Source of the DNA: a virus
DNA: 63,171 nt
Strand: one strand, 5' to 3'
Virus record (IMG/VR): IMGVR_UViG_3300031949_000033
Location: 1-63,171 of that record
In this document: positions 1,957 through 58,749 of the stretch, in pieces
Layout: the number at the start of each line of letters is the position of its first letter
Numbering within the stretch: position 1 is the first letter of the stretch
The notes under the pieces: generated by a model
The model's input: the letters and a program-made list of their open reading frames with translations, nothing else
Database searches by the model: none
Told to the model about the DNA's origin: nothing
Translations under genes and position numbers: made by a program

Positions 1957-1960
1957 CGGT

Positions 1961-45646: not shown

Positions 45647-45666
45647 GTATTATTTTAGGAGCCCCC

Positions 45667-45927
45667 ATGCGCCCACCCCGAAAAGTGACCGCCCGCCCGA
45701 TTACGGCGCCTCAATTCTTCCGCCAGCACATCCTGCGGATGACCGTCTCTGAGCTTGCCGCAGCCCTGCAGATCAGCGGCCCGGTCGTAACCCAGTGCGA
45801 AATCAGGGGAAAATTCCCGATGCGGCACTACGAGACCCTGATTCGAATGGCCAAGGAGCGCGGTCGCAAGATCAAACTGTCCTGGCTTGAGCGCGTTCCG
45901 TGGGCTGACGACGTGCCCAGTGACTAA
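45667..45927 (+). CDS. HTH DNA-binding protein
   Basis: 86 aa: MTVSELAAALQISGPVVTQCEIRG. TAGGAG RBS. Confidence 0.6.
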   Translation: MRPPRKVTARPITAPQFFRQHILRMTVSELAAALQISGPVVTQCEIRGKFPMRHYETLIRMAKERGRKIKLSWLERVPWADDVPSD

Positions 45928-46500
45928 ATGGTGCGGTGGCTTGGCATCGAGACTGTTCGCCGGCTGGAGGCGCAGGGCCGGATCAAAACTCATGTCCTGC
46001 CCCAGGCCCGGCTTGCCTACGCCGATGCCGAGTTGACCAAGCTGGGAGTTCCCGCGGTCCTCTTGGCGACACCGTTGGTTCGCTTGGATCTGCCGATGCC
46101 ACCCTCGGCCAACAAGTATTGGGTTCCGGTGCCGACGTTCTCGGGGTCCGGCAAGATCATCGCAAGACACATCCTCAGCCGCGACGGGAAATCCTATCGG
46201 CGCGAAGTCTGGCTGGCCGTGCGGCAGGCTGGGATTCGCTCTGCCTTGGTCTGTCGGCTGCGCATGGTTACCGTGCTCCACTTTCGCACCCGCGGCATTG
46301 CCGACATCAAGAATCGCTGCAAGTGCTTGGACGATGCGCTTGCGTATGCCGGCGTCTACGTCGACGACAGTCAAATCGACCACGGTGAGCAGATCCGCGG
46401 TCAGATCGTGCGCGGCGGGCGCGTCGTCGTCTACCTGTACGAGAACGACTCGCCCTACCCTGCCTATCCCCCTACGGCGCCTCAAGCGGCGGGCGTTTAG
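45928..46500 (+). CDS. rusA: RusA-type Holliday junction resolvase
   Basis: 190 aa. PPSANKYW near the start of the core and DIKNRCKCLDDALAYAGVYVDDSQI (the D..N..K...DAL....DD.QI pattern). Confidence 0.7.
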   Translation: MVRWLGIETVRRLEAQGRIKTHVLPQARLAYADAELTKLGVPAVLLATPLVRLDLPMPPSANKYWVPVPTFSGSGKIIARHILSRDGKSYRREVWLAVRQAGIRSALVCRLRMVTVLHFRTRGIADIKNRCKCLDDALAYAGVYVDDSQIDHGEQIRGQIVRGGRVVVYLYENDSPYPAYPPTAPQAAGV

Positions 46501-46897
46501 TCGCCGGATCGGCGGCCGGTCCACCACCCAGCCTGACGCCGTGATAGACCCACCAGGCCCGCAGCCATGACATCCCGTCCTCGCGCACCAGTCGTCTGAG
46601 AATCTTGTCGGCCGCCTCTCTGCAGTCCTGGCTCAATCGGCCCTCACGCATGAGCGCGTAGAGCGCGTCATGCACGAGGGAACCACGCATGAAATTCTTG
46701 GTGTCGATTGCTGGCCAACTTGGACCATCAAATGCATAGCCATCCGCAATGCGCAGTTTGCCCTTCATGTCGAGACGGATGTATTCCGTGATGATCGGCA
46801 CCGGCGGTCGAATGTCTACCTGGATGCGGTAGGCTTGGGTGAGCTGGTACTTATAGCCCGATTTGTATCGAATCTTCTCTCGCTGGCGTGTATTCAT
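46472..46897 (-). CDS. DUF1353-like protein, last gene of the long minus-strand operon
   Basis: 141 aa. ...IADGYAFDGPSWPAIDTKNFMRGSLVHDALY resembles the DUF1353 pattern. Confidence 0.55.
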   Translation of the reverse strand: MNTRQREKIRYKSGYKYQLTQAYRIQVDIRPPVPIITEYIRLDMKGKLRIADGYAFDGPSWPAIDTKNFMRGSLVHDALYALMREGRLSQDCREAADKILRRLVREDGMSWLRAWWVYHGVRLGGGPAADPATKRPPLEAP

Positions 46898-47114
46898 AGC
46901 GGTAGGTGTTTGGAGTCGGTTTGTCTTGCGCCTGAGATTCGTTGTCCTTGAGCGCGCCTTCTTTCGTGGCCTCGGTCGTTTCCACTCCCGGCATCATCAC
47001 GCTTTGCGTGACCGCCGGTGTGTTGTAGGAGGCCGTGGCCACCCAGTTCACATGCAGCCCGGAGCACCCGGACAGCATCGCCGCCGCCGTCAGCATGAAC
47101 AAAACATTCTTCAT
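46851..47114 (-). CDS. Lipoprotein (o-spanin candidate)
   Basis: 87 aa from MKNVLFMLTAAAMLSGCSG (lipobox LSGC), with GGGAGA RBS. Confidence 0.6.
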   Translation of the reverse strand: MKNVLFMLTAAAMLSGCSGLHVNWVATASYNTPAVTQSVMMPGVETTEATKEGALKDNESQAQDKPTPNTYRYEYTPAREDSIQIGL

Positions 47115-47133
47115 CGTTTTCTCCCTGTGGTTG

Positions 47134-47355
47134 CTAGAGTGATCGCCTGCCCGTCTCGCGCATGAGCTGGGTAAGCAACTGTACAGCACCTGTTTCCCCG
47201 CGCTGTTTCCTGACGGCGCCGATGTAGGCTCGGCGGTCCTCATAACTCTGTCTGGCCAACCACCGCGCCTCGCAGGCTGCCTTGAATTCAGCCGTGTACG
47301 TCGCGCCCACGTTCCCGGGCGAGCAGTCCTCGCAGAGGCAAGCGCTCGACATCAA
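47134..47355 (-). CDS. Hypothetical Cys-containing protein in the lysis cassette
   Basis: 73-aa ORF. Its ATG overlaps the endolysin stop (ATGA). Confidence 0.5.
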   Translation of the reverse strand: MMSSACLCEDCSPGNVGATYTAEFKAACEARWLARQSYEDRRAYIGAVRKQRGETGAVQLLTQLMRETGRRSL

Positions 47356-47831
47356 CTATCCTCGGCGCCGTATTCGAGGTTGGCCGCGATCCTGTTGCAC
47401 CAGCCGCGACCGAACCGATCGAATACCGACAGGCGCGCCATGTAACGCAATCGTTGGGCGTTGAGGTGCATGATCTGGTCGGTCTCACTCATCGCCTTGG
47501 CTGCCGCCGCACTGATTGGCCCCCAGTAGCCGTCATCGGCAACACCGAGCGCGGCCTGCAGCTTGCGTATTGCGGTCTCGATGCCGCTGTTGACGGCGAA
47601 GTCGAATGTCTGAAAGGCGACGCCATCATACAGCTCGTCGGCATTGATTCGGTGCCAGAAGTCCATCCGGTAAATCTGCTTGGCTCCCTCGCGGGTCAGG
47701 TGCTTGATGTCGACTCCGGGATAGCTGCGTTTGCTCACACCCCAATTCGTCTCTTGCCCTGGATCATCCGGGTCGTTGACATATCCACCTTCATGACCCA
47801 GCAAACGATCGAATGCGGTCTCGAAGTTCAC
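47352..47831 (-). CDS. Endolysin, glycoside hydrolase family 108 N-domain plus PG-binding C-domain
   Basis: 159 aa. MNFETAFDRLLGHEGGYVNDPDDPGQETNWGVS is the typical GH108 opening (catalytic EGGY). The C-terminal part is GYWGPISAAAA...RLRYMARL. Confidence 0.8.
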   Translation of the reverse strand: MNFETAFDRLLGHEGGYVNDPDDPGQETNWGVSKRSYPGVDIKHLTREGAKQIYRMDFWHRINADELYDGVAFQTFDFAVNSGIETAIRKLQAALGVADDGYWGPISAAAAKAMSETDQIMHLNAQRLRYMARLSVFDRFGRGWCNRIAANLEYGAEDS

Positions 47832-48151
47832 GGTCGCCGATCGTCCTGATTGAGGCGCCCACGGACTTCGCGCAACTTGGAAATCGCACGATTGAGCTTT
47901 GCGCGCTGCACGTCGGTGCGCTTGTCCTCGGGCACGAGGTCGAGTTCGAAAATCTTGTCTTCGAGCATCTGCTTGCGCAAGTTGTCCGTCGCCCTCCTGG
48001 AATCCTTCTTGACGCTATCGGCGAGGTTTCGCAGGTCCACGGCTTTGGCATAACGGTCATCGGCGAACAGGGCAGCGGAAATGATGGTGCCGCAGAACAG
48101 CAGCACCCCCACGACAGCCTTGATGCTCGTTTCGCGTTGCGGCATGTTCAT
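47828..48151 (-). CDS. N-terminally anchored coiled-coil membrane protein (i-spanin or holin-associated candidate)
   Basis: 107 aa. It has the TM helix AVVGVLLFCGTIISAALFA followed by a charged helical region. ATGA coupling to the endolysin. Confidence 0.5.
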   Translation of the reverse strand: MNMPQRETSIKAVVGVLLFCGTIISAALFADDRYAKAVDLRNLADSVKKDSRRATDNLRKQMLEDKIFELDLVPEDKRTDVQRAKLNRAISKLREVRGRLNQDDRRP

Positions 48152-48288
48152 CTACGTCCTCCTTCCTTCTTGGTTTTTCTTGGAAAGCAAATGTACCCGC
48201 CCAGCGTCTTGATCGCCGTCGCCAGACAAAGATACGTCCACGTCAAAACGGCAATCAACATCAGGATAGGCGCTGCAACCAAAGCCAC
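48148..48288 (-). CDS. Small membrane protein (holin candidate); start uncertain
   Basis: The hydrophobic ALVAAPILMLIAVLTWTYLCLATAIKTLGGYICF is followed by the basic tail RKTKKEGGRR. GTG 48288 was chosen because the upstream part of the ORF overlaps the giant gene. Confidence 0.35.
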   Translation of the reverse strand: MALVAAPILMLIAVLTWTYLCLATAIKTLGGYICFPRKTKKEGGRR

Positions 48289-48295
48289 GGCTACG

Positions 48296-51200
48296 CTACC
48301 TATCGCTGTTATACAATTCCCCGATTTTCGCTCTTTGTGCTCGCATCTGCTTGGGGACACGTTTTTCCCTCGATTTCGGCCCGATCAACTCGGCTGTTAT
48401 CGCCGCATTTAGCGACTTGTTCGTGATAGTGATGCGCTCGTGATCCGGTCTGCCTTCATTCCAAGCATCGATCTGCGCTTGGGTGGCGTCGATCCGCCGC
48501 TGGTACTCGGTGGCTGCTTTGGCGTCCCTGCGCTCCTCGGCGCGAATCTTCCTGGCATGGGCCACGGCCAGCCGATAGCGATAGGTACGCTTCATTTCGT
48601 TCAGTCCATACGACAGCCGACTTTTCGCGTATTCGGATTCTGTGATTTCGGCGATCTTCCGCGTCCTGGCGCCCAAGCCGCGCATGAGCACGTCCCAGTC
48701 GTTGATCTGGCTCTCATGTATGATCTTGTTGCCGTACTTCTTGCTGCGCAGCCCGCTCTCACGCAAGGCCGATGCCTCGAGCCAATTCTTGATGAAGTTC
48801 GGCGAGGCCGCGGCAATCGCAAGCTTCGGCTCGCCGCGCTGCGACTGTTCCAGCACGCCGCCAGCTCCCAAACCCCGCTTGATCCACAAGTCGAACGGAA
48901 TGCCCAGCATGCTCGCCGGGTCCATGGGACTCGGCAGGATGTCGCCCATGCCGATCCTGCCGCTTATCTCAGGCGCGTGTTTGAAAGACCTGGCGGCGCC
49001 ATAGGATGCAATCTCTGCGGCGCGCGGCGAACCCGTGATCTCGGTCACAAACTGGCGGAACTCAAGCTTCAGGTCTGTGTCAATGTCCCTCGTCGTCTTC
49101 GAGAGCATTTCGATGACTTTGCGGATATTCTCGGCGAACGGGAACGCCCACAAGCCCCCGGTGATCAGAAGCAGCGTCCACATGGCGAGCAGCGCGACTC
49201 TGCCGCGGTTGCCGTGCAGCCCAACCCCCAGCCTCGCGTACAACTCGATGGTCTGCCAACTGAACCCCTTGAACTGAACGATCGGCGCCATCACATGGCG
49301 GCCGGCTTCCGGGCGATTGCCTTTGCCCATTTCGTAATGCGTCTCATAGACGACCCATTCTGCGAAGACTCTGGCGAAGTCCTCTTTGGATGCCTGCCCG
49401 AGTTCACTCGCCGCTAAGGCGTTGTCCTGCAGGATCTCCAGAATCTTCTCGCGCATCCCGGATAATTTGGCGATCCGGTAGGCGGCAATATAAGTCACGA
49501 TCCGGTTGTGCCTCTCGGCGAGCGTGAACATGCTGGCGAGCGCATCGATTGTCTCCCGCGACGCCTTGGAGAGCTTTCTCAACTGTACCTGCCGATGGTA
49601 GGCCGTACCCATCATTTCCATGGTCGCCAGCGGCACGAAGAAGCCTTCGTCTGAGGATAGCTTCATGTCCCGCTGCATGTCCTTCGGCGCCCTGGAGATA
49701 TCGAATACTTCGTCGCTCTTGACCGCGGTGGCGCCGATAATCCCGCCGGCGACGGCACCGGCCGGTCCTGCTGCCCATCCTCCCAAAGCTGCGCCGAGCG
49801 CTGCGCTGCCTGCCAGTCGCATCGCCCCGGCGTTTTTCAGGACCAGCGGATTGATCATGGCAGTCGCTGAGGTGTAGGCGCGCGTCATTTCTAGACCCAC
49901 CCTCCCCGGGCTGGCGAATTGCATCAGGTAGGGCACGGTGATCATCGGAACCTGCGACAGATTGACCATCGCGGTTGAGGGCACCGCCGCCAAGTAATAG
50001 ACGTAGGCGACCTGCCTGAGATACTGGAATTCCTCGGTCGGCGAATTGATGTAGCTGCGGTAGCGTTGCGCGTACTGCCTCAATTTAGGCTTGCCGCTCG
50101 GTATTGCCTGGATCGCCGCGTCCCACTGCGGGGCGAACCGGCGTCTGGCCAGATAGCCGGCCAGCGACACCGTGTAATCGGCAAGCGCACGCTCGAAGTC
50201 GACGCTGTACCCGGCGATGTTTTGAGCGCCGAGGAAGTGCTTTCTGAAACCGCGCTTCTTCAAGGCGATTCTCATTCGTTCTTCGATGTCGTTGCGCACG
50301 GCTTCATCGACGAAGGCCATGCGCATGAGCTGATCGAACGCAGGCATGTCGATCTGCGGCGCCTCGGCACCCGTCACGAGATCGAACGGCTTCGATACCT
50401 CATAGCCTTGGGATGCCGGGAATTCTTTGCGCAAGGCGTCCAAGCGCTTCTGTACGCGGCGCGTCTTGCGCCAGCGCTTGAAGTCTATGCGTGGTTCTTC
50501 GAGCGCCTCGAAATGCGCCGTCCGGTCGTCTTTGCTCACTGCGATACCGACATTGCCGAACCGGGTGAACGGCACATAGCCGCGCCGCTTGCTCTGGTGG
50601 ATTTCCTCAACCTTGTCGGCCAACCATTTCAGTTGATCGCTTTCTACTTTCGGCATGCCAGCCTTGATTGCCGCGAGCACCTGTTTTGCCGTCTTGACGG
50701 TCTTGGGATCGAGTCCGGCCTCAAGCACAAGCTCGGCGATGAAACGATCCAGCGCCTTGTCCATGGCACGCCTGACGCTCCAGTAGGCAGACTTCTGTCG
50801 GTCGGTGAGCGTGATGGTCTCGCCGACCTTTGACAATTGCGCCTGCGGAAACTCGGTATTCTTGGCTGTCGCGACATCTTTACCCTTCCCGTATACCTCC
50901 CCGGCGAGTCGCCCGAGTTCCAGCAAGGCATCGACCGGCCTGCGATCGGCGGCATTCAAGTCCTGATAGCGCCGGTATGTCTCGGCGATCTCGGCGACGA
51001 TTTCATCGCGGAGTTGATACTGCATGCTCTGCGTGCGCTTGACCAGCGTAAAGTCCGAATCGAACGCCGCAATCGTCCGCGGGTGGACCCCGAAGCGCGT
51101 CAGTATCGACAGGTCCACTGTTGGCTCGTATTTACCGGAGGGCTCCGGCAATGCTTCGGTCACGGCTTCCAATGCCGCGTCTTGCTGTTCGGGGCTGAAG

Positions 51201-54200
51201 AGGATGTCCGGGTTCGTTGGGTCGAACGCACCAGTGTTGCCGGTGGCGGACTTAACCTGGGTATTATTCCGCAAGAGCCACGAATCATGTGTTCTTCCAC
51301 CGTCTGGCGCTACATCTTCAAACACGATAGCATCGTAACCTTGTTTGAATGCCTCAGATAGGATTCCTTCGTCCTCAAAGAACCTGTAGATCGCTTTGTC
51401 CTTGTACTTATCCTCTAACTCGTATTTGGCATCTTCGTCGAGATTGACCCACGCATCTTCGGTGGCTAACATCCCTTTGTCTTTTAATGTTGTCCACAGA
51501 CCTTCAACATCACCTACGTCGGTACCAAATTCGCGCAGATCAAGAGGATTGTTGGCTACGGCATACAGAGACGAAACATGGCCGTTTGAATCAGGCGATA
51601 GATCAATGCCATTTGCGTCGGCGATGTCTCGTAATGCTTTTGGTCCAAGATCGGTAATAGATTCGCCACCTTCTTCCGCCAGGATGTCGCTGACAATTTC
51701 ACCGAGAGCGTCATTCTTATCAACTTCAATTTGAAGCGCCTTTAGTTCCGCATATGCCGACGCGGCCGATTCATCGTTTGTTACAAAAATGCCGCCGTCA
51801 AATATATGTCGTTCGGCATCGCTACCGTGATACACCACAAGCGGCCTCCCGCCCGTCTTGCCATCTGCCGTGACGACACTCTTTCCGAACCACCGCTTGA
51901 ACTCCGGCGTCTGCGTCTGGTCCTGCTTCGCGTCTTCTGCGGCATTCATTTTTTCTATAAGAGTGTCCTCCGTTTGCGCCTGTATTCTAGCTATACGCTC
52001 GCTCAGTGGCATCTCTGCTGCGAGAAGCGGCGCCCCAAGATCAACAAACGCGCTCCGCATCAGAGCGGCCTTTATAGTGAGCGGATTTACCCCTTTGGCG
52101 AGCGCAATTGAAACATCAGCGGCCTCTTTTTTTGTTTGACCCGGATAGAACAAAGACTTTCTCAAAGCCGGGTCCTTGCGCGCTGCCGCTTCACGTTCTG
52201 CCATCCTGCGTTTGATAGCATCAAGCGATTCCGGCGTCTGGTCCTGGGAGCGGGAGAATGCCGCTTCGCGCATGGCGTCCAGCTTCTCGCCGTTGCGCTC
52301 AAGCAGGGCGATGCGGTCCTTGGAAACAAATTTGTCGTTTTCAAGGAAACCGACATTACTCGTGTCTTCGGTCTTCTCGTTGTACACATCCCTGCGCAAT
52401 CGCTCACGCACGCCGTTGCCCATAACATCGCTCGGCGCACTGAGAATGGCTTCTTCGTGCGTCGCCCCGGTATAGACCTCGCCGGTTTCCGGGTCGCGCA
52501 CTGCGGCAATACTGCCTTCTGTCGCCCTCTGTTTGGCAAGAATCTGTTCGTATGTATTCTTCTGCCTGCGGCTAAACAGCGTCCCTTGTGTATTAAAGAG
52601 GTCGGCCTGATCTGCCGTCACTTTCTTCCCGGCGCGCGCCTTCTCCGCCTTCCTTTCTTCCGCCGCTTTCTCTTTCTCTGCGGCTTTGGCCTGTTCTTCG
52701 CGCCGTTGCAATGCCTCCGGTGTCGGCTGGTTGAGCAACGGCTGCTCGTCCTGTTTTGTCGCGTATTCAGCTATCGCTTTCGCAATCGCCTCGCGAGCGA
52801 GCTTCATATCCGATACGAACCGCTCTGCGCGAAGGCTGCGCCTGCCCAGCACCGAGTTGACGACGCGCTGGATAAACCGCAGGATTTCCTTCGCCAGTCC
52901 CTGAAACTTTGTCGGATCTATCGCCGCCACGCGCGACCAGAACTGCGGGTCGGTGAAATTCGACCCCACGGCGTCGCCGATCATTTCCTCGGTCACCTTA
53001 TCGACCGGCGCACCAAGCCGTATGCCATAGATGCGACGGAATTCCGCGTGATTGATGAGTACCGGCGCGACAAGGGCGTGCAAATCCTTATAGAGGTCCG
53101 GGCGTTCTGATCGCAGGAAGTGCGTCAGTTCATGCCCGACGATCTGGATGTACGGATGCTTGGTATCGACGGAGACGAAGATGAATTTGTCCCAGCCGGG
53201 CTCGCGCAGAACAGCGCCATTCAGGCGGTACGCTTCGCCGAACTCGACCCACACGACCTCTTTGTTGTGGTGCCTGGCGATTTCTTCGGCGAGGCTGGCG
53301 TCATCCGTTCCGGGCGATGCCACTGCCCTGACTATCGCCTCAGGGTGAGCGATCTTGCGCAACGCCTCTTGAAGTCTGCCGGCCGCGCCATGCCCAGTCA
53401 GCGCTCGGCCACCTGGGGCTGTCTCGCTTCCGCGCTGCTCCTTCGAGAACGGAACATCGGGCAGTTCTTCATCCTCTTCCGGCAACGGTCCCTGCAGGTC
53501 TCCGGGCTCCTCTTCGACCGCGCGGCGGTTTTCGTCCTCGATCTCGGCCCTGATCCTGGCTTCCTCGGCGAGTTCTTCTTCGTATTTCTTGCTGTGAACA
53601 GACCAGTGTTTGCGCAGTCCCATCAATTCGTCGCGGATGCGTTCGCTCAACAGATTGATGGCGCCGTTGTCGCCTGCGCTGTCGATGTCATCCTGCAGGA
53701 TGTAGCTGAGGTCAGGCGAACTCAAGTCGACGGCCAAGTTGTCCAGCGTGTTGCCGTCCTCGCGAAACAGATTCCCGAGACCTGGAATGAACTGCTGGCC
53801 GTTACGTTCTCCCGTCAGGTCGCTGCGCTCGCGGTTCGTGATTCCGCCCATCTTGGCGACCGCCACGAGAATCGAGTCGCGATCAACATCGACAACCTTC
53901 CTGCGCTTGGCTGCCGCGACCTGCGCTGGCGAGGGTGGCCGATTGGCAATCTCGTCTCGCCGGTTCAATTCGTCCTGCGCGACACCCGCATTGGGTCCGG
54001 GACCGGCCGTCAAGCGCTGGAGGATCTGCTTGTTGATCCTGTTTGCCGGGCGCCTCGTGCCGTCCGGTGCGACGAGATAGCCTATTTTTTCCTTGCGTGG
54101 ACCCTCAGCAGCGGGTTGCTCTTCTTCTTGCGCGGGGCGCCCTCCGGGTGCGCTGCCGACATCGGCCGGTTCCTGTGGCTCGCGTTGTAGATAGCCGCCG

Positions 54201-56812
54201 CCTTGGACTGCGCCAGGTTGTAGGCCGGACTGTCCACCGGGGCTCCGTGGGCGAACTTGTCTCGCATCTGGGTATACTGTTTCGGCATAGGTCACCGCCT
54301 TTTTGAGTTTGTCGGACTTGGCGAGCGCAATCCACTGCTCGACTGGCATCGCCGTAATCTCTCCGATCCGCGCCACCGCAAGATCGTCGGAGTCGGAAAA
54401 TGACCCCGTATAGGCTGCAAACGCTTCTGCCTTTGAAGAGAACCCGAGCATCGACTTCGTTTCATCGAACGCGCCGGTCTTCGGATCGATCTGATCGATC
54501 ACGTAGACTTCCTTGACCAGCGGGTTGTCGCCGATGAACACATCAGCCTTGTCACCATCCGACCCTTCGGCCGCCATCAGATGGCCGTAATGCGCTGGCA
54601 TATTGGGCACGCTCCAGGAACCATCGGCAGCCGTCCTAGTTGCCCCTTTTGGCGTCTCGATGGCAATCTGACCGATGCCCTCCAGGGGACCATCGGCGAA
54701 CCGAATCCTCGCCTTTTTGTAGTTGTCAGCCAGCTTCTGGCCCGGGCTCGCGTCGACATCGGTCTGACTGGCAGCAAAATCGGCACCCACGGAGTCGGTC
54801 ACGATGAACGGGTCCTCCGGCGTTCCCTTGCCTTTGGGCAGCACAACAAGTTGGGTGCCGGTTTCCGCGTCGATTTCCAAGCGCGTACCGTCCTCGGTCA
54901 GAAAATCGATCATCGGCCCGTTTTCCCCGGCCCTGACGGCAGTCACCTTCCCCGGTATCCGCTCGCCCGATGGCGTCACGGCTATGGACGGGTAGGGCAG
55001 TTTCGCGATGCCTGCCTGCTCTCTGGCCGCCGCGTCTTGCGCCTCTTTGACCTTGGCCGCCGCGGCATCGCGCTCGGCTTGTGACTGGCCTGGCTGCTGC
55101 GTTCCGGCAACGATCGCATCGAGTTCGGCACGACTGCCTGGTTCCGGGGTTTTGACTGGTTCCGGTGGCTCCGGTGCAGCCTTGGCCGGCGGCGGCTGGC
55201 CCGCCGTCTTGGTCGTCTGCAGGCTGGATACGCCCTCGGAACCGGATAGCGCCGCTACGGCCGCCCGCCTGGCGCCCTCTGGTGAGAAGGCGCGCTCATC
55301 GATATCGCCAGCCAGCGCCCTGCCTACGGCCGCTCCCGGCCTGATTCTCTCGTCTACTCGCTGCGCGAGGCGCGTGGCGCCGATAATCCCGCCGCCCAGC
55401 CCGCCCATGCCGGCTACCGTCAACAGGGTCGGTCCGGCGACTTCCTCAAACGATTTCCACCAGTCCGCTGCGCTCGTGAACGACCTCGGGGCCTCGCGCG
55501 TGATCCCGGCCTGCGATTCGGCGCGTTGCTGGCCCATTTGCGTCGGTACTTCAGTGGCCACCTCGCCTGCCGTACCGCCTGCGATCCCGAGCGCTGGTTT
55601 TATGATGCTCTTTTTCAATGCATGTTCAAGGATGTACTTGCCTGCACCCAGCATGATCAGGTTGCCGACGGCCTCCGATCCAGCCTCCCAGAGACCATGC
55701 CGCAGTGCAATATCCTGTGCGCTACCACTATCACGAATAGCAATGCCGATTTCCTTGGCTGCCGCCTGCATTTCCGGTGCCTGGGCGATATCGATGAATT
55801 CCTTGTCGGTCAGCGCTCTACCCATCTGCTCCTGGGCGGCTTTGTCCATGGCGTCGCGCAGATTTCGCATGAAATCGTTGGTATCCATCCTGTACGAAAG
55901 CATGCCGCCGCCAAGCATTCGTCCTCCGGTGAGGCCAGCGCGTCCGCCTACGGGCCCACCAACGAGCGTACCGACGGCGAGCCCGCCGAGCCCCCCCAAC
56001 AGCGACCCCGCCATCGAGACGACCGAGAACATGAACTGTTGCGGCATCGTGCGCACGACTTGGCGGTTGATCTTGATGCCGAGCATATCGACGTAATTGC
56101 CTTGGGCGTTCGGGACCTTGGAGGCTTCCTCGGCATTGCGCCTTGCGTCCATGATGGCCTCCTCCATCCATCCTGGATCGCTGAAGATTGCCTCCGGGTC
56201 GCCCCCCTGAATCGCTGCGGCCGGTGTGGCGACGAGGTTCGCCGGAACTGATCTGGCCGCCGCCGCTATGTCCTCGCCCAGTTCGCCGATGGTTGGGGTC
56301 TGTGGCGGTGCTGGCGTGGTCAGAGTGTTGAGAACCGCCTCGGCATTGGTCGGCGCGGAAATGTTCTGCCCGGTTCGGACGCGTTCGACATCCTCTATAG
56401 CCCCTGGGATGGCGCTGCGCACCGCGGTGCCGGTCACGTCCGGCCTGAATGCTGCTGCCGCGACGTTTTCGACGGGCATGCGTGGAATCGCCCGCTGGAT
56501 CTGGTCGTAGTAGGACTGGCGCATCGGCGCTACCGGCGATGGCTGGTCCTCTATCGCTATCTGTTCCTGCGGTGGCTGCTCGACTGGTGCCGGCTGAGGG
56601 CGCAGTTCGACGACCGTCTGGATCGGTCGAATCGGCCTGTAATTGAGCGCTGGCTTGGCGGCTGCCTCGAGCTCGTCCGGCGTCGGCTCCGGTTCTGCCT
56701 GCTCTACGGGTGCCGCAAGTCCGAAACGATTCCTGATGGAGCGGGCGACGATTTCATTCGGCGTGCCGTCGGGAAACTCGAAGACGATCCCGTTGGATTC
56801 GACTTCGCGCAC
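48296..56812 (-). CDS. Giant (2838 aa) polyvalent virion/ejection-type protein
   Basis: Single uninterrupted ORF among ejection-protein-like genes. Blocks in order: N-terminal Gly-zipper hydrophobic segment (about 55950-56040), pyrophosphatase-like block, HExxH block, ART-like block, and a C-terminal part with at least three hydrophobic segments (about 49130-50000). Confidence 0.8.
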   Translation of the reverse strand: MREVESNGIVFEFPDGTPNEIVARSIRNRFGLAAPVEQAEPEPTPDELEAAAKPALNYRPIRPIQTVVELRPQPAPVEQPPQEQIAIEDQPSPVAPMRQSYYDQIQRAIPRMPVENVAAAAFRPDVTGTAVRSAIPGAIEDVERVRTGQNISAPTNAEAVLNTLTTPAPPQTPTIGELGEDIAAAARSVPANLVATPAAAIQGGDPEAIFSDPGWMEEAIMDARRNAEEASKVPNAQGNYVDMLGIKINRQVVRTMPQQFMFSVVSMAGSLLGGLGGLAVGTLVGGPVGGRAGLTGGRMLGGGMLSYRMDTNDFMRNLRDAMDKAAQEQMGRALTDKEFIDIAQAPEMQAAAKEIGIAIRDSGSAQDIALRHGLWEAGSEAVGNLIMLGAGKYILEHALKKSIIKPALGIAGGTAGEVATEVPTQMGQQRAESQAGITREAPRSFTSAADWWKSFEEVAGPTLLTVAGMGGLGGGIIGATRLAQRVDERIRPGAAVGRALAGDIDERAFSPEGARRAAVAALSGSEGVSSLQTTKTAGQPPPAKAAPEPPEPVKTPEPGSRAELDAIVAGTQQPGQSQAERDAAAAKVKEAQDAAAREQAGIAKLPYPSIAVTPSGERIPGKVTAVRAGENGPMIDFLTEDGTRLEIDAETGTQLVVLPKGKGTPEDPFIVTDSVGADFAASQTDVDASPGQKLADNYKKARIRFADGPLEGIGQIAIETPKGATRTAADGSWSVPNMPAHYGHLMAAEGSDGDKADVFIGDNPLVKEVYVIDQIDPKTGAFDETKSMLGFSSKAEAFAAYTGSFSDSDDLAVARIGEITAMPVEQWIALAKSDKLKKAVTYAETVYPDARQVRPRSPGGQSGLQPGAVQGGGYLQREPQEPADVGSAPGGRPAQEEEQPAAEGPRKEKIGYLVAPDGTRRPANRINKQILQRLTAGPGPNAGVAQDELNRRDEIANRPPSPAQVAAAKRRKVVDVDRDSILVAVAKMGGITNRERSDLTGERNGQQFIPGLGNLFREDGNTLDNLAVDLSSPDLSYILQDDIDSAGDNGAINLLSERIRDELMGLRKHWSVHSKKYEEELAEEARIRAEIEDENRRAVEEEPGDLQGPLPEEDEELPDVPFSKEQRGSETAPGGRALTGHGAAGRLQEALRKIAHPEAIVRAVASPGTDDASLAEEIARHHNKEVVWVEFGEAYRLNGAVLREPGWDKFIFVSVDTKHPYIQIVGHELTHFLRSERPDLYKDLHALVAPVLINHAEFRRIYGIRLGAPVDKVTEEMIGDAVGSNFTDPQFWSRVAAIDPTKFQGLAKEILRFIQRVVNSVLGRRSLRAERFVSDMKLAREAIAKAIAEYATKQDEQPLLNQPTPEALQRREEQAKAAEKEKAAEERKAEKARAGKKVTADQADLFNTQGTLFSRRQKNTYEQILAKQRATEGSIAAVRDPETGEVYTGATHEEAILSAPSDVMGNGVRERLRRDVYNEKTEDTSNVGFLENDKFVSKDRIALLERNGEKLDAMREAAFSRSQDQTPESLDAIKRRMAEREAAARKDPALRKSLFYPGQTKKEAADVSIALAKGVNPLTIKAALMRSAFVDLGAPLLAAEMPLSERIARIQAQTEDTLIEKMNAAEDAKQDQTQTPEFKRWFGKSVVTADGKTGGRPLVVYHGSDAERHIFDGGIFVTNDESAASAYAELKALQIEVDKNDALGEIVSDILAEEGGESITDLGPKALRDIADANGIDLSPDSNGHVSSLYAVANNPLDLREFGTDVGDVEGLWTTLKDKGMLATEDAWVNLDEDAKYELEDKYKDKAIYRFFEDEGILSEAFKQGYDAIVFEDVAPDGGRTHDSWLLRNNTQVKSATGNTGAFDPTNPDILFSPEQQDAALEAVTEALPEPSGKYEPTVDLSILTRFGVHPRTIAAFDSDFTLVKRTQSMQYQLRDEIVAEIAETYRRYQDLNAADRRPVDALLELGRLAGEVYGKGKDVATAKNTEFPQAQLSKVGETITLTDRQKSAYWSVRRAMDKALDRFIAELVLEAGLDPKTVKTAKQVLAAIKAGMPKVESDQLKWLADKVEEIHQSKRRGYVPFTRFGNVGIAVSKDDRTAHFEALEEPRIDFKRWRKTRRVQKRLDALRKEFPASQGYEVSKPFDLVTGAEAPQIDMPAFDQLMRMAFVDEAVRNDIEERMRIALKKRGFRKHFLGAQNIAGYSVDFERALADYTVSLAGYLARRRFAPQWDAAIQAIPSGKPKLRQYAQRYRSYINSPTEEFQYLRQVAYVYYLAAVPSTAMVNLSQVPMITVPYLMQFASPGRVGLEMTRAYTSATAMINPLVLKNAGAMRLAGSAALGAALGGWAAGPAGAVAGGIIGATAVKSDEVFDISRAPKDMQRDMKLSSDEGFFVPLATMEMMGTAYHRQVQLRKLSKASRETIDALASMFTLAERHNRIVTYIAAYRIAKLSGMREKILEILQDNALAASELGQASKEDFARVFAEWVVYETHYEMGKGNRPEAGRHVMAPIVQFKGFSWQTIELYARLGVGLHGNRGRVALLAMWTLLLITGGLWAFPFAENIRKVIEMLSKTTRDIDTDLKLEFRQFVTEITGSPRAAEIASYGAARSFKHAPEISGRIGMGDILPSPMDPASMLGIPFDLWIKRGLGAGGVLEQSQRGEPKLAIAAASPNFIKNWLEASALRESGLRSKKYGNKIIHESQINDWDVLMRGLGARTRKIAEITESEYAKSRLSYGLNEMKRTYRYRLAVAHARKIRAEERRDAKAATEYQRRIDATQAQIDAWNEGRPDHERITITNKSLNAAITAELIGPKSREKRVPKQMRAQRAKIGELYNSDR
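51113..51850 (-). other. ADP-ribosyltransferase-like block of the giant protein (tentative)
   Basis: GRPLVVYHGSDAERHIFDGGIFVTNDESAASAYAE (VVYHGS at 51821-38) resembles the opening of the ART domains found in phage polyvalent proteins, as I recall them. The catalytic Glu is not assigned. Confidence 0.4.
52913..53305 (-). other. Zn-metallopeptidase-like block (HExxH) of the giant protein
   Basis: IQIVGHELTHFLRSERPDLY. HELTH is encoded at 53120..53134. Confidence 0.55.
54410..54667 (-). other. Inorganic-pyrophosphatase-like block of the giant protein
   Basis: IAIETPKGATRTAADGSW...YGHLMAAEGSDGDKADVFIG...VIDQIDPKTGAFDETKSMLGF parallels the PPase motifs EIPKG...YE, YG.IP and DGDP.DV. Confidence 0.5.
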
Positions 56813-56814
56813 AT

Positions 56815-58038
56815 CTACTCCTCGACGACAGAGAATTCGCCGGTTGTCGCGTCAAATCGCTCGCGCGGCTGTTTGACTGCCGCCGGGTTCGCGCCGGCGA
56901 CTTGCGGTTTCTGAAGGAACGCGTCGGCCACGCGACCAAGTTCATCGAGGCTCTTGCCTTGATTGTTTGGCTGTTGGGCCAATATCCTGATGACATTGAC
57001 TCTCATCTGGTCGGCCTGCCGCGGATTGGTAGCGGCTGTGCGGATTTGCGTCCATGCGTCCTGCGTATCCTTCGCAACGCCTTCGCTGACTAGGAATCGA
57101 ATCAGCTTGACTTGGGCCGGGTCAGGACCGGCGCCTCCTCCCATCTGGCCTTTTGTCGGTCGCGCCTTCGGGAAGGGCTTGCCCGGGGCGTTGATGTTCT
57201 CGCCTCCTTTGCCAACTAAAACCGGAGCATCCCGTTCGTCGAAGTAAAGCTTGCCGACCTGCGGTGTCGGTTTCACTTGCAGCGCTGCCGCGCGTCCGGC
57301 TTCGGTTGCCTTACCGATATCGCCGGATTGGTCGTGCATGAAGGCGCCGACGAACGTCAGGGCCTGATCGCCAGTCAGCTTGGGCATCTTTGAGGCGACA
57401 TTCGTGGCGATCCTCAATCGCGTCATCACGGCGCGATTCGACCAGACCGCATCCGGAATCGCGATCCCGTACTGTCTGGCGAGTACCTTTGCCATTCCGA
57501 CATTGCCATCATTGATCGCCTTGAAGACCAGTTCCGTGCCTTTGATGCGGGTGCTCACATCGGCACTCGCTTGGAGACGCGCTGCTTTCCTGTCTTCGCC
57601 GTAGAGTGTCGCCATCGTCCGACCTGTACCCGGCGTTTGGGCGAGTTCGCGCATCACCGGCGCCATACCGCTGCTCTGCGGCCGGCTATCTGCCGTCACG
57701 GCTGACAATGGATTCGCTGCGGGCGGCGCGGCGGTCGGTGCCGGTGTTGCTGGCGCCGGTGCAGGCATCGGCCCTGCGCTCGGCAGTGCCGGTGCTGGCG
57801 CAGCTGCGGGCGGTGCGGCGGGTGCCATGGTGGGCGCAGTCGTCGCCGGTTGCTGGGTCGCGTAGGGCAGCGAAAAGCCCCTGCGCATGGCCGCGTCGGC
57901 TTCCTGAGCTTGGCGCCATTCGGTGAACGCCCGGTCGTCGATTTCGCGCTGGCGTCGCTGCTGATCGCCCCTGGCAAGTTCAGAGTTGAACCGCGAGATT
58001 CCAGGGCTGTTGCTTGCCATTCGCACGTTCATCGGCAC
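56815..58038 (-). CDS. Internal virion / ejection-type protein (putative)
   Basis: 407 aa with a Pro/Ala-rich linker. The call rests on its position between ejection-like genes. Confidence 0.45.
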   Translation of the reverse strand: MPMNVRMASNSPGISRFNSELARGDQQRRQREIDDRAFTEWRQAQEADAAMRRGFSLPYATQQPATTAPTMAPAAPPAAAPAPALPSAGPMPAPAPATPAPTAAPPAANPLSAVTADSRPQSSGMAPVMRELAQTPGTGRTMATLYGEDRKAARLQASADVSTRIKGTELVFKAINDGNVGMAKVLARQYGIAIPDAVWSNRAVMTRLRIATNVASKMPKLTGDQALTFVGAFMHDQSGDIGKATEAGRAAALQVKPTPQVGKLYFDERDAPVLVGKGGENINAPGKPFPKARPTKGQMGGGAGPDPAQVKLIRFLVSEGVAKDTQDAWTQIRTAATNPRQADQMRVNVIRILAQQPNNQGKSLDELGRVADAFLQKPQVAGANPAAVKQPRERFDATTGEFSVVEE

Positions 58039-58050
58039 GGCGTCCTCCTA

Positions 58051-58746
58051 TTACCCGAAGGGTTTGTAGCCAGAATACCGGCTGGGCCGGTTTTCGTCTT
58101 TGTTCGCGTTGGCTATGACGCTCGCGATCTGGGCGAAGGTATCGACATCGGATTGCGCGTTTGACGTTGCCGCGTTGGCCGCGACGCTCCCGGCGCCGGT
58201 GTTTTCCGCGGCGATGTTCGAGGCGTTACCCGTGGCGATATTGGCGAGTGCCGGTGCTGCCGTGCGTTGGGTTGCCAATCCTTGGTTCACGAGCGTGCCT
58301 GCCGCCTGATCTGCGCGTGACTGATTCTGCGCGAACATGGCGTTGCGCGCGGTATCGACCCCTTTGTTCGTGATGGCCGTTGCCGTGCGCCCCGATCCGC
58401 GCAGCGAAAACGGTACGCTACGCTGGGCGTTCATCGTGATATCGCCCATTGCAGAGCGCTGCTGCTGATTCAGTTGATACGGGTTGCTCGCCGTGACCGT
58501 CTTCAGGTATTGAAGCCCCGGCGCCGCGATCGATTTGCCTTGATGGAGAAGCGGCGTGATGTAGCCGGTGGCCTTGTCGCCTGCTTCCCGAAAGAGTTGG
58601 GCATTGGTGGATGCGGTGTCGCGCGCGATATTTGCCGCCTGGTCGTTCGCCTTGGAGGCGCGATTGGAGCCGATCAGAGACGATCCGATACTCAGAATCG
58701 CATCCCATGCCCACGTCGACGGATCGAGAAAACTGAATGATGCCAT
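58051..58746 (-). CDS. Internal virion / ejection-type protein (putative)
   Basis: 231 aa, A/N/Q/S/T-rich and low in complexity, typical of podovirus DNA-transfer proteins. Confidence 0.45.
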   Translation of the reverse strand: MASFSFLDPSTWAWDAILSIGSSLIGSNRASKANDQAANIARDTASTNAQLFREAGDKATGYITPLLHQGKSIAAPGLQYLKTVTASNPYQLNQQQRSAMGDITMNAQRSVPFSLRGSGRTATAITNKGVDTARNAMFAQNQSRADQAAGTLVNQGLATQRTAAPALANIATGNASNIAAENTGAGSVAANAATSNAQSDVDTFAQIASVIANANKDENRPSRYSGYKPFG

Positions 58747-58749
58747 GGT

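Follow-up and report, generated by a model that had tools for sequence, protein, structure and literature searches.

Polyvalent phage proteins that combine domain types such as those treated here were described in 2017 by Iyer, Burroughs, Anand, de Souza and Aravind; that paper predicts that such proteins are packaged and injected, and defines the InPase and ART-PolyVal families (PMC5512222). An IVP-D-like ejection module fused to domains that act inside the cell was described in 2016 by Hardies et al., who reported that the giant proteins of the F116 group have a homologue of T7 IVP-D at their C-terminus and who cite the GenBank annotation of H66 gp60 as a structural protein (PMC4819975). The giant proteins JC1 gp69 and Bcep22 gp75 were detected in virions by mass spectrometry (PMC9144972), and phi24B gp47 was abundant in the virion proteome, and a role in ejection was proposed for it (bioRxiv 10.64898/2026.04.10.717836). 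N4 gp50 is a beads-on-a-string protein of ~3500 aa that is packaged and ejected with two smaller ejection proteins, and it shows that a chain of this length can traverse the tail channel (PMC13434306). Its C-terminal region was assigned to the IVP-D family (PMC4819975) and has an HExxH domain (PMC5512222).

The window, which is the whole stretch of viral DNA analyzed here (63171 nt), has a 72-bp direct repeat at its ends and was therefore taken to be a circular assembly of ~63.1 kb. The gene under study is the following.

48296..56812, minus strand: giant ORF, 2838 aa plus stop, with a GTG start and a GAGGAG ribosome-binding site

As the initial annotation had reported, this single ORF takes up 13.5% of the genome (8517 of 63171 nt). 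The GTG start at 56812 lies 7-8 nt past GAGGAG and 2 nt past the TAG of the upstream gene, and the start residue was the same in two collinear homologues, P0002 and P0003. The identical 2838-aa protein was called on two independent assemblies, so the giant ORF is not an assembly chimera, and the G+C across it (0.56-0.63) overlapped that of the remaining window (0.555-0.661). The giant ORF is real. The gene product is likely to be a polyvalent ejection protein, internal to the virion, of a podovirus of the F116/Bcep22/KPP25 type. The protein appears to be organized as beads on a string, in which an N-module and a C-module would form a constant frame around an exchangeable cargo array, with disordered linkers. 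The cargo array consisted, in order, of a family-I pyrophosphatase-like domain, a module of ~110 aa, a probable zincin-type metallopeptidase, and an ART-PolyVal domain. All five motifs of the initial annotation were recovered where it had placed them in the 2838-aa protein; a motif search located IETPKG at aa 718-723, DGDKADVFIG at aa 752-761, VGHELTHF at aa 1225-1232, and VVYHGSD...YAE at aa 1659-1689.

The neighbourhood of the giant gene was analyzed on both sides.

56815..61173, minus strand: three upstream low-complexity ORFs of 807, 231 and 407 aa, candidate co-ejected proteins by position only
46851..48360, minus strand: lysis cassette of four ORFs downstream of the giant gene
in the lysis cassette: 70-aa ORF whose hydrophobic stretches fit two TM helices
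in the lysis cassette: 107-aa ORF with a hydrophobic stretch at its N-terminus
47352..47831, minus strand: GH108 endolysin of the lysis cassette
46851..47243, minus strand: lipobox lipoprotein of the lysis cassette

The three upstream genes had been called ejection-protein-like, a description that applies to them by position only. The 807-, 231- and 407-aa ORFs gave no PHROG or Pfam family match and the 407-aa ORF gave none by tblastn; homology to known ejection proteins was not detected in these searches. A comparable ORF series was also present upstream of the giant gene in P0002, and in phage JC1 the two ORFs upstream of the giant gene encode virion proteins (PMC9144972). A tail-fibre ORF with a Peptidase_S74 chaperone domain was found on the upstream side as well. 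The lysis cassette expected downstream was confirmed by the GH108 endolysin and the lipobox lipoprotein among its ORFs. The giant gene is located in a late, virion-gene context, between the tail-fibre and unknown ORFs and the lysis cassette, and the order of tail fibre, three unknown ORFs, giant gene and lysis cassette is that of F116-/Bcep22-type podoviruses. The F116 giant gene is followed by holin, glycoside hydrolase and spanin genes, in the same order as in the window. The window capsid protein was related to those of the KPP25, AP1 and Bcep22 groups, with a distant 31% identity to the Bcep22-like protein.

At the N-terminal end of the protein, a leader and a conserved module were distinguished.

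56717..56812, minus strand: N-terminal leader, aa 1-32 (...GIVFEFPDGTPNEIV...), a short motif that recurs at the extreme N-terminus in some relatives
55343..56305, minus strand: conserved N-terminal module (N-module), aa ~170-490, from the alignment of relatives
55943..56035, minus strand: Gly-zipper hydrophobic segment, aa 260-290 (FMFSVVSMAGSLLGGLGGLAVGTLVGGPVGG), KD19 maximum 1.67

A loose regex placed the leader motif among the first 60 residues in 13 of 187 relatives, of which ~10 were convincing; the background elsewhere was ~0.005 occurrences per 60 aa. Gly-rich hydrophobic segments of the N-module were located at aa 258-290, 381-399, and 458-483. The Gly-zipper segment at aa 260-290, already recognized in the initial annotation, was conserved in the alignment of N-module relatives. 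A phmmer search with the N-module against 1.84 billion representatives returned 281 proteins at E<=1e-3, of which 128 reached E<=1e-10; in position it was always close to the N-terminus, and the proteins carrying it were 149-5719 aa long among the matches listed. The N-module had no Pfam, PHROG or PDB match, and hhalign comparisons with T7 gp13-16, epsilon15 gp17 and RIO-1 gp37 were negative. The frame was shared by P0002 and P0003 at 49-68% identity, whereas their central cargo was different. An N-terminal N-module and a C-terminal C-module were also found in proteins with other domains, namely RadC/JAB, ParB-like, helicase, methylase, and SLT.

The first cargo domain was the one described as an inorganic-pyrophosphatase-like block.

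54332..54742, minus strand: InPase domain, family-I pyrophosphatase-like, aa 691-827, Pfam PF18823

This assignment was borne out by a PF18823 match well above the curated cut-off (E 2e-29; 102.5 bits vs 26.8; model positions 2-133 of 135) and by the conservation of metal-binding residues. In an alignment of 15 sequences with 37-66% identity to the window protein, the residues E, R, Y, D752, D757, and FDE.K were invariant, and the middle Asp of DGDxxD (D754) was D or E in all 15. The InPase profile retrieved ~20 true inorganic pyrophosphatases in the PDB (E 0.06-1.7), aligned on IExPkG and YG...DGDxxD. The same profile also matched the C-terminal end of the portal protein of Pa193 (9b41; E 2e-43); this part of the portal (aa 529-765) has no density in the cryo-EM map (PMC11456595).

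The next part of the array contained the ~110-aa module and the HExxH domain.

53573..53920, minus strand: recurrent ~110-aa module, aa 965-1080, shared with other giant proteins
52613..53365, minus strand: HExxH domain, aa 1150-1400, probably zincin-like metallopeptidase
53120..53134, minus strand: HELTH motif, aa 1227-1231, in the HExxH domain
52973..52990, minus strand: conserved EEMIGD, aa 1275-1280, in the HExxH domain

The ~110-aa module, with the pattern ..AIxKMGGI..D.TGE...LF..G..LD..A..L...GY...., was common to at least nine other giant proteins at 25-53% identity and had no PDB or Pfam match. In the HExxH domain, H1227, E1228, H1231, E1275, E1276, and D1280 were invariant in six sequences of 24-57% identity. 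The AF2 model of the domain (pLDDT 74.8) gave the order helix, strands, HExxH helix and Glu helix, with helix 21-32, strands 36-42 and 61-65, helix 71-87 (HExxH), and helix 121-135 (EE), and the predicted order fits a zincin. The Pfam domain scan that had been proposed as a check supported InPase and ART-PolyVal above threshold, and gave no match to MPTase-PolyVal or other peptidase models; for the HExxH region of the window protein no Pfam peptidase matched at E<=1. Other members of the domain family gave sub-threshold Pfam matches to M48 (E 0.033) and M78 (E 0.017). A PDB profile search found nothing significant, and neither did Foldseek, in which the best peptidase was ZMPSTE24 (rank 34, E 2.3). 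The metallopeptidase motif VGHELTHF of the initial annotation is thus present with invariant key residues, and a significant peptidase-family or structure match was not obtained. From the invariant residues and the predicted secondary-structure order, the HExxH domain is probably a zincin-type metallopeptidase.

The last cargo domain was the ADP-ribosyltransferase (ART).

51188..51919, minus strand: ART-PolyVal domain, aa 1632-1875, with two insertions, Pfam PF18760

The ART-like opening noticed in the initial annotation belonged to a PF18760 match of 38.9 bits (cut-off 31.2), which lay in two stretches split by the insertions. The candidate active-site residues were H1662, F1676, and D1827. 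The active-site configuration of ART-PolyVal is given as H-Y-D in its defining paper (PMC5512222), and Tyr was expected at the position of F1676 in strand 2; this replacement by Phe makes ART activity uncertain. Among 12 aligned units (the window unit and 11 relatives), the strand-2 aromatic was Y in six, W in three, F in two, and H in one, while the His was conserved and the Asp was conserved in 11 of 12. In another index, the precomputed ART-PolyVal match is flagged as 'faint'.

A short motif, FSxxQ, was found at four junctions of the array.

53435..53449, minus strand: FSKEQ, aa 1122-1126, between the ~110-aa module and the HExxH domain
52562..52576, minus strand: FSRRQ, aa 1413-1417, past the HExxH domain and conserved as FSQIQ at that junction in P0002
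52244..52258, minus strand: FSRSQ, aa 1519-1523, junction motif with ALLERNGEKLDAMRE directly before it
51185..51199, minus strand: FSPEQ, aa 1872-1876, where the ART unit ends, family consensus NPDIRFS(R/K)

FSxxQ, a motif defined post hoc, occurred four times in the giant protein against 0.2 expected, and none of 5000 shuffles reached four. The ALLERNGEKLDAMRE stretch before FSRSQ was also present in P0002, where the flanking cargo differs. The junction motif could mark processing or recombination sites. The excess of FSxxQ at domain junctions, and its presence at the same junctions in relatives with other cargo, led us to a more specific and doubtful reading, a self-processing injected polyprotein in which the FSxxQ junctions would be cut by the embedded HExxH peptidase after ejection and the N-module would be a second, hitherto unrecognised membrane- or portal-docking domain. 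If this were true, cleavage would release the pyrophosphatase-like and ART domains into the cytoplasm and leave the N- and C-modules behind in the envelope, and the N-module, which is N-terminal in all of its 281 cluster representatives, would mark out a large superfamily of ejection proteins that carry cargo.

The C-terminal part of the protein was a single large module.

48311..50953, minus strand: PLxRFG or 'tail-700' module (C-module), aa ~1954-2834 (~880 aa), NCBIfam NF032893, putative IVP-D-like ejection part
50555..50575, minus strand: PLxRFG signature, here VPFTRFG with Phe for Leu, aa 2080-2086, followed by a predicted beta-hairpin
49133..49204, minus strand: strongest hydrophobic segment, aa 2537-2560 (GRVALLAMWTLLLITGGLWAFPFA), KD19 maximum 1.98

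The membrane-inserting ejection module suggested in the initial annotation corresponded to this domain, which scored 192.3 bits with NF032893 (cut-off 100) and matched phrog_11358 at E 2e-45. The C-module was at the extreme C-terminus in all relatives examined, and in its alignment the Y, P, R, and G of the PLxRFG signature were invariant. At least three C-terminal hydrophobic segments had been claimed, and three were found at a Kyte-Doolittle(19) value >=1.0 (aa 2267-2293, 2330-2366, and 2536-2563). In the whole protein, only aa 2536-2563 and the N-terminal aa 260-289 exceeded 1.4. The segment at aa 2537-2560 was family-conserved and GLPFA.D comes next, while aa 2330-2366 was an insertion found, among 21 aligned sequences, only in the window protein and its two closest relatives; the conserved hydrophobic segments of the C-module are thus two, one strong and the other moderate.

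The AF2 model of the C-module was mostly helical, with moderate confidence (pLDDT 65.5). Foldseek against BFVD matched it to the C-terminal pieces of giant polyvalent proteins (E 1e-20 to 1e-13) and, more weakly, to proteins of P12053L (1.3e-6), ICP2 (9e-6), CRP-4 (2.9e-5), and CW02 (4.4e-5), all with probability 1.00; for these φRIO-1-clade and CRP-4 fold matches the TM-scores were low (0.17-0.36) and the query model was of moderate confidence. The CRP-4 protein is annotated 'Internal virion protein D', and the matched proteins of φRIO-1-clade podoviruses are ~1400 aa long. From their size and clade, we take the P12053L, ICP2 and CW02 proteins to be the gp37/IVP-D homologues of that clade. 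In the literature, φRIO-1-clade gp37 is assigned to the T7 gp16 (IVP-D) family. The C-module model had no match in the PDB, and hhalign gave no significant relation to T7 gp16 (probability 1.5-1.9%, P 0.03), RIO-1 gp37 (8.1%, P 0.004) or epsilon15 gp17 (0.8%). The published link to the IVP-D family (E 8e-19) required joined intermediate profiles (PMC4819975).

The window protein was then compared with the described systems. On its predicted domains it is a polyvalent protein, since at least two unrelated effector or enzymatic domains are present in one phage polypeptide, and the initial annotation was right in matching it to that concept; InPase and ART-PolyVal pass the Pfam gathering thresholds and PLxRFG passes the NCBIfam cut-off. 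As in the proteins described by Iyer et al., unrelated effector domains are joined in one giant polypeptide, and like ~36% of those proteins it has an HExxH domain (PMC5512222). The gene also shares their late context adjoining virion genes. In contrast to the described polyvalent proteins, its HExxH domain, N-module, and ~110-aa module are outside Pfam models. Polyvalent proteins are said, in the same paper, to lack the fixed organisational themes of secreted toxins (PMC5512222), whereas the window subfamily has constant N- and C-modules and variable cargo. The PLxRFG module is shared with H66 gp60 and F116 p59+p60 (Hollowayvirus; tblastn E 1e-16 to 1e-17, 25% identity, aa ~2002-2312), and in other relatives the tblastn C-module alignment ran up to aa 2836. 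However, F116 and H66 carry methyltransferase cargo in place of InPase, HExxH and ART, the F116 giant protein is split into two ORFs whereas the window protein is single, and the ~25% identity is limited to the C-module. Bcep22 gp75, JC1 gp69 ('DarB-like', ~4500 aa) and phi24B gp47 (2811 aa) resemble it as giant polyvalent proteins encoded at the end of the virion module, before the lysis genes, but they contain helicase and methylase domains or else LPD1/LPD5/LPD38 and MuF-C, and none of these was found in the window protein. N4 gp50 differs in its RNA polymerase domain, which the window protein lacks; the latter carries an ART, a pyrophosphatase-like domain, and a probable peptidase. With T7 gp16 it would share the proposed role of a large helical internal protein that is ejected to form the inner-membrane end of a DNA conduit, and a weak local resemblance was seen at '..G..G....QFK.F..' just before the hydrophobic segment. 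T7 gp16 has no ART or InPase cargo, and the window protein has no SLT domain, although an N-terminal SLT domain as in T7 gp16 was present in the relatives P0007-P0009 and P0050. T4 Alt is comparable in concept, as a capsid-delivered ART that enters with the DNA and modifies host proteins at once. However, the Alt ART belongs to the R-S-E clade and ART-PolyVal is of the H-Y-D type (PMC5512222), and Alt is a small separate myovirus protein, whereas the window ART is a domain of a giant ejection protein.

Other explanations of the protein were also considered. It could be a structural core or ejectosome protein whose enzyme-like domains are inactive relics or serve packaging, DNA binding or docking in the capsid. 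The Pa193 portal, which ends in the same InPase-like domain in a part without density (PMC11456595), would be in line with this, as would the Phe and the two large insertions of the ART and the lack of a curated peptidase family for the HExxH domain. However, the 15 aligned sequences conserve the key pyrophosphatase-site residues, H-E-x-x-H and the downstream Glu are invariant, the ART His and Asp are conserved, and its aromatic varies as Y/W/F/H, so that Phe is within the family range. The turnover of cargo between close relatives also looks like effector diversification rather than structural constraint, and we regard a purely structural protein as unlikely.

A DarB-like antirestriction protein guarding the incoming DNA from type I restriction is far less probable still. 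PHROG 10089 ('DarB-like antirestriction') matched aa 542-835, and Klebsiella and Burkholderia phage homologues bear the DarB-like label (PMC9144972). This match, the sole PHROG one to carry that label, covers the InPase region only, and the window protein has no helicase or DNA methyltransferase domain in Pfam, while the relatives so labelled do have such domains (PF13871/PF13872/PF04851). The label follows the shared C-module and not DarB function, and DarB-like identity was rejected. The least probable explanations, with hardly any weight, are an N4-type virion RNA polymerase, which the initial annotation had named as the competing identity, and an artefact, either of assembly (a chimera) or of ORF calling (a false fusion). 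The size and position of the gene resemble those of N4 gp50, and the phiC725A homologue is annotated 'putative internal virion polymerase', but no RNA polymerase family was found in Pfam, NCBIfam or PHROGs, no PDB match to the N4 vRNAP structures was obtained, and the polymerase was rejected. The identical protein on independent assemblies, the collinear homologues with the same start, and the overlapping G+C speak against an artefact.

For the preferred reading, a virion-internal polyvalent ejection protein, the following course can be proposed. Judging from relatives and the literature, the giant protein would be made late and packaged into the head, and at infection it would leave through the tail, accompanied by the proteins that the three upstream ORFs encode. 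The C-module, which shares its fold class with the large internal virion proteins of the φRIO-1 clade, would join a trans-envelope DNA conduit at the inner membrane, and the cargo domains would act in the host cytoplasm during the first minutes. There the InPase-like domain may hydrolyze PPi or a nucleotide-like signal and the ART may modify host proteins, while the metallopeptidase may process the polyprotein or attack host targets.

The novelty seen in the initial annotation was overrated, since the polyvalent domain combinations (2017, PMC5512222) and the fusion to an IVP-D-like ejection module (2016, PMC4819975) had been described; the domain families, the polyvalent concept itself, and the connection of the C-module with ejection proteins had likewise been published. 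The small additions made here are a widespread N-module without a database model, an HExxH family and a ~110-aa module outside Pfam, and the junction motif. Many podoviruses probably depend mainly on giant polyvalent proteins to deliver several anti-host activities along with their DNA. To our knowledge, almost none of these proteins has been studied biochemically. The 2838-aa protein is compact, with two recognisable cargo enzymes, a third probable one, and clear module boundaries, and it would be a reasonable template for studying cargo activity, polyprotein cleavage, and the passage of a ~300-kDa chain through the tail.

The giant ORF was found as the initial annotation had described it, at 48296..56812 on the minus strand, with 2838 codons and a 13.5% share of the assembly. 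It starts with GTG, 7-8 nt past a GAGGAG sequence and 2 nt past the stop codon of the upstream gene, and the start residue is identical in the two closest relatives of the protein, P0002 and P0003. The window carries an exact 72-bp direct repeat at its ends (1..72 and 63100..63171), which indicates a circular assembly of about 63.1 kb. The giant ORF ranges from 0.56 to 0.63 in G+C content, and the remainder of the window has an overlapping range. An assembly chimera or other assembly artefact was considered and ruled out, since two assemblies made independently, one a 63,081-bp ENA contig and the other a 17,773-bp Logan contig, both encode an identical giant protein. Megablast of the giant ORF against 50,697 phage records returned no match; the phage is one without a close cultured relative. 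All the motifs quoted earlier for this protein were located at the expected places.

Motifs and the conserved N-terminal module of the giant protein (encoded on the minus strand)
aa ~170-490 (window 55343..56305, minus strand): conserved N-terminal module (N-module), delimited by alignment with relatives
aa 260-290: Gly-zipper segment
from aa 718: IETPKG
from aa 752: DGDKADVFIG
from aa 1225: VGHELTHF
aa 1659-1689: opening of the ART domain

The pyrophosphatase-like block was analyzed using Pfam, which placed an InPase domain (PF18823) at aa 691-827 (window 54332..54742) with an E value of 2e-29. In an alignment of 15 InPase domains, 37-66% identical to that of the giant protein, the Glu of IExPkG, an Arg, a Tyr-Gly pair and FDE.K were kept, as were the two outer Asp of DGDxxD, with Asp or Glu at the middle position. 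Searching the PDB with the InPase profile recovered about 20 true family-I inorganic pyrophosphatases, at sub-threshold E values of 0.06-1.7, and these always aligned on the same catalytic motifs. Because the catalytic residues are kept and the structural entries align on the same motifs, the assignment of aa 691-827 as a pyrophosphatase-like domain, predicted from sequence, is sound. The same profile matched the C-terminus (aa 634-761) of the portal protein of the Pbunavirus Pa193 (PDB 9b41 chain L) at E 2e-43, which shows that a cultured phage has a member of the InPase-like family in one of its virion proteins. Residues 529-765 of this portal have no density in the cryo-EM map (PMC11456595), and its InPase-like domain is probably on the capsid-interior side of the portal. 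Two other PDB entries, the designed repeat protein 7rdr and the SPP1 gp17-like 9fkb, were rejected as relatives, their matches being of low complexity or marginal score.

The ART-like module scored 38.9 bits against ART-PolyVal (PF18760; cut-off 31.2 bits), the match being broken into two stretches by two insertions in the domain. The active site of this family is given as H-Y-D in PMC5512222. Alignment of the giant protein with 11 related units showed that H1662 and D1827 are present, and that the strand-2 aromatic, at the position of the Tyr, is Phe (F1676); across the aligned units this residue is Tyr in 6, Trp in 3, Phe in 2 and His in 1. The domain belongs to the ART-PolyVal family by its sequence, and may be catalytically competent.

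The metallopeptidase proposed around VGHELTHF was supported in part. The region at aa 1150-1400 (window 52613..53365) is related to P0002 and to four further proteins (P0015, P0023, P0033 and P0035) at 24-57% identity, and H1227, E1228, H1231, E1275, E1276 and D1280 are invariant in the giant protein and these five relatives. An AF2 model (pLDDT 74.8) consisted of a helix, strands, the HExxH helix, two short helices and a Glu-bearing helix, the order of the zincin core as given in PMC5512222. However, the region matched no curated Pfam model, the six members giving only sub-threshold scores with Peptidase_M48 (E 0.033) and Peptidase_M78 (E 0.017), and neither a profile search of the PDB nor Foldseek with the AF2 model gave a significant match. 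The conserved residues and the modelled order suggest that aa 1150-1400 is probably a zincin-type metallopeptidase of a family outside Pfam.

The N-module had no match in Pfam, PHROG or the PDB, and its hhalign comparisons with T7 gp13, gp14, gp15 and gp16, epsilon15 gp17 and RIO-1 gp37 were negative. An exhaustive phmmer search with this module found 281 cluster representatives at E<=1e-3 and 128 at E<=1e-10. Among the matches listed, which range from 149 to 5719 aa in length, it was always close to the N-terminus, and in some proteins an SLT domain was N-terminal to it. A module of about 110 aa (aa 965-1080), which had no Pfam or PDB relation, was common to at least nine other giant proteins. 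The leader (aa 1-32, window 56717..56812) has '..GIVFEFPDGT..' at the extreme N-terminus; a loose regular expression detected similar 'PDGT' leaders in 13 of 187 relatives within their initial 60 aa (about 10 of these were convincing), compared with about 0.005 per 60 aa elsewhere, and the leader may be a targeting signal. The stretches at aa 33-170, 490-690, 830-960, 1085-1150 and 1400-1630, for which no match was found, consist of linkers rich in Pro, Ala and Glu, of short helices, or of one small piece rich in beta structure (aa ~600-670).

The C-terminal module (C-module, aa ~1954-2834) scored 192 bits against NF032893, the 'tail-700'/PLxRFG domain of NCBIfam (cut-off 100), and PHROG 11358 spans aa 2005-2826; the PLxRFG signature reads VPFTRFG (aa 2080-2086). 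The AF2 model of aa 1990-2838, of moderate confidence (pLDDT 65.5, pTM 0.55), was nearly all helical, with a beta-hairpin past the PLxRFG motif. Profile and Foldseek searches of the PDB with the C-module gave nothing significant, and the T7 gp16 and N4 ejection-protein entries were not recovered. In BFVD, the model matched C-terminal pieces of giant proteins of uncultured phages (E 1e-20 to 1e-13, TM ~0.5), whose annotations read methyltransferase, helicase or 'large polyvalent protein-associated domain'. A second group comprised four large proteins (E 1e-6 to 4e-5, probability 1.00), from Celeribacter phage P12053L (1487 aa), Vibrio phage ICP2 (1416 aa), Salinivibrio phage CW02 (1413 aa) and Roseobacter phage CRP-4 ('Internal virion protein D'). 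P12053L, ICP2 and CW02 belong to the φRIO-1 clade, the gp37 of which was assigned to the extended family of T7 IVP-D (gp16, internal virion protein D) because the giant proteins of the F116 group bridge both sets (Hardies et al., PMC4819975). From their size and clade, we infer that the three matched proteins are gp37 homologues.

Comparison of the C-module with T7 gp16 by hhalign, with single sequences or with profiles of 21 and 18 sequences, gave non-significant probabilities of 1.5-1.9%. The value for RIO-1 gp37 was 8.1% (P 0.004), also non-significant, and that for epsilon15 gp17 was 0.8%; enlarging the gp37 family from viral contigs gained only 4 loci. The aligned patch of T7 gp16 was the same in each run, 'GALGKMVMQFKSF', directly before a hydrophobic stretch. 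For the link to T7 gp16, the published E value is 8e-19. With fold matches and literature on one side and non-significant profile comparisons on the other, the designation of the C-module as an IVP-D-class ejection module is supported by modelled fold similarity and the literature, not by the sequence statistics obtained here.

At least three hydrophobic segments had been claimed for the C-terminal region, and three were indeed detected at a moderate threshold (aa 2267-2293, 2330-2366 and 2536-2563). The only strongly hydrophobic segments of the protein were aa 2537-2560 and, near the N-terminus, aa 260-289. The segment at aa 2330-2366 (window 49715..49825) is a Gly/Ala-zipper insertion in the C-module, present only in the giant protein, P0002 and P0003 among 21 aligned C-modules. 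This insertion resembles the Gly-zipper of the N-module.

A word-index search with the full-length query found 41 related proteins. P0002 (3751 aa) and P0003 (3245 aa) are collinear with the giant protein over aa 1-855 (55% identity), 864-1417 (49%) and 1867-2836 (68%); between these blocks they carry RadC/JAB, a ParB-like domain and a second HExxH domain, and they are without ART. More distant relatives share only the N-module, only InPase, only ART or only the C-module, and add SLT, helicase, methylase, GNAT, LPD1/5/38/39 and MuF-C domains. Among 187 proteins, the N-module started at a median residue of 60 and the C-module ended at a median of 2.5 residues from the C-terminus, and a detectable PLxRFG C-module was present in 24 of the 96 long N-module proteins. 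The subfamily is thus built on a constant frame, and the cargo in its middle part can be exchanged.

The motif FSxxQ was found at four domain junctions of the giant protein (aa 1122, 1413, 1519 and 1872; window 51185..53449), and also at the corresponding junctions of P0002 and P0003. Where 0.2 occurrences were expected there were four, a number that none of the 5000 shuffles attained; a looser motif, [hydrophobic]FS[RKPQ], had 175 occurrences across the 187 proteins, compared with 99±10 in shuffled sequences. As the motif was defined post hoc, these figures serve only as an indication. The FSxxQ sites could be processing sites, or conserved linkers or recombination joints for cargo exchange.

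The structural genes lie on the minus strand, and their module wraps around the assembly ends, spanning the junction of the circle.

Genes of the structural and lysis modules
19760..23263, minus strand: terminase large subunit, 1167 aa
13407..17504, minus strand: tailspike-like ORF, 1365 aa
6278..7330, minus strand: major head protein
562..1998, minus strand: P22-type head-closure or tail-hub protein
61616..63076, minus strand: tail-fibre ORF with a Peptidase_S74 chaperone domain, across the junction
between the tail-fibre ORF and the giant ORF, minus strand: three low-complexity ORFs of 807, 231 and 407 aa
after the giant ORF, minus strand: lysis cassette of a 70-aa ORF, a 107-aa ORF, a GH108 endolysin and a lipobox lipoprotein

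Among podoviruses, the Pseudomonas KPP25/phiR18, Acidovorax AP1 and Burkholderia Bcep22-like phages have capsid proteins that share 31-39% identity with the one encoded here. The terminase ORF is unusually long, with a match to a PhoH-like ATPase PHROG (aa 39-293) ahead of the terminase match. In the 1365-aa ORF, which has a tailspike-like C-terminus, 12 separate stretches matched a 'virion structural protein' PHROG, and the product appears to be a tail protein with internal repeats.

The three upstream genes, previously called ejection-protein-like, do occupy the position before the giant gene, but they matched no PHROG or Pfam family, and the 407-aa ORF had no tblastn match in phages, so that 'ejection-like' refers to their position only. 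The giant gene of P0002 is preceded by a similar series of ORFs (569, 463, 234 and 465 aa). The placement of the giant ORF before the lysis cassette was confirmed by the endolysin, the lipoprotein and the two small hydrophobic ORFs downstream: the 70-aa ORF has hydrophobic stretches consistent with two TM helices, and the 107-aa ORF has an N-terminal hydrophobic stretch. The order seen here recurs in phage F116, where the giant gene(s) are followed by genes for a holin, a glycoside hydrolase and an Rz-like spanin. Counted from its first start codon, the 70-aa holin-like ORF (48148..48360, minus strand) shares 65 nt with the 3' end of the giant ORF, and its true start may be further downstream. 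Past the lysis genes (window 45655..46897, minus strand, and L072/L073) are DUF7696, DUF1353 (PHROG 'tail assembly chaperone') and RusA-like ORFs; the DUF7696 and RusA ORFs are also on the P0002 contig.

Two other identities were weighed for the giant protein. An N4-type virion RNA polymerase was rejected, as no RNAP domain was found and there was no match to the N4 vRNAP structures. A DarB-like protein was suggested by a PHROG 'DarB-like' match, but this covers the InPase domain only, and the giant protein, having neither a helicase nor a methylase domain, is not DarB-like. Instead, with InPase and ART-PolyVal both above their cut-offs in one chain, it falls within the definition of a polyvalent protein, as first proposed, and is a member of the InPase, ART-PolyVal and PLxRFG families.

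We established here the domain identities, the frame-plus-cargo architecture and the position in the virion module. A place in the virion is supported by relatives: JC1 gp69 and Bcep22 gp75 were detected there by mass spectrometry (PMC9144972), and H66 gp60 is annotated in GenBank as a structural protein, as cited in PMC4819975. The 2811-aa gp47 of phi24B, abundant in the virion proteome and invisible in the reconstruction, was proposed to be an ejection protein (bioRxiv 10.64898/2026.04.10.717836). By our proposal, the giant protein would be packaged in the head and, when the phage infects, would exit via the tail along with the products of the upstream genes. The C-module, whose conserved hydrophobic segment (aa 2537-2560) precedes GLPFA.D, would help build an envelope-spanning conduit, and the cargo domains would act in the cytoplasm. 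Following PMC5512222, the ART domain would likely ADP-ribosylate host proteins, InPase would likely remove PPi or a nucleotide-like signal, and the HExxH domain would likely serve in polyprotein autoprocessing or in cleavage of a host target.

The combination of modules had been put forward as deserving characterisation. A multi-enzyme protein, packaged, injected and fused to an ejection module, has in all these elements already been published; the giant protein therefore adds to an established class, from an uncultured phage lineage. Modestly new are the N-module, which is widespread yet unannotated, two unclassified modules (HExxH and ~110-aa), the Gly/Ala-zipper insertion that is specific to this lineage of the C-module, and the junction motif.
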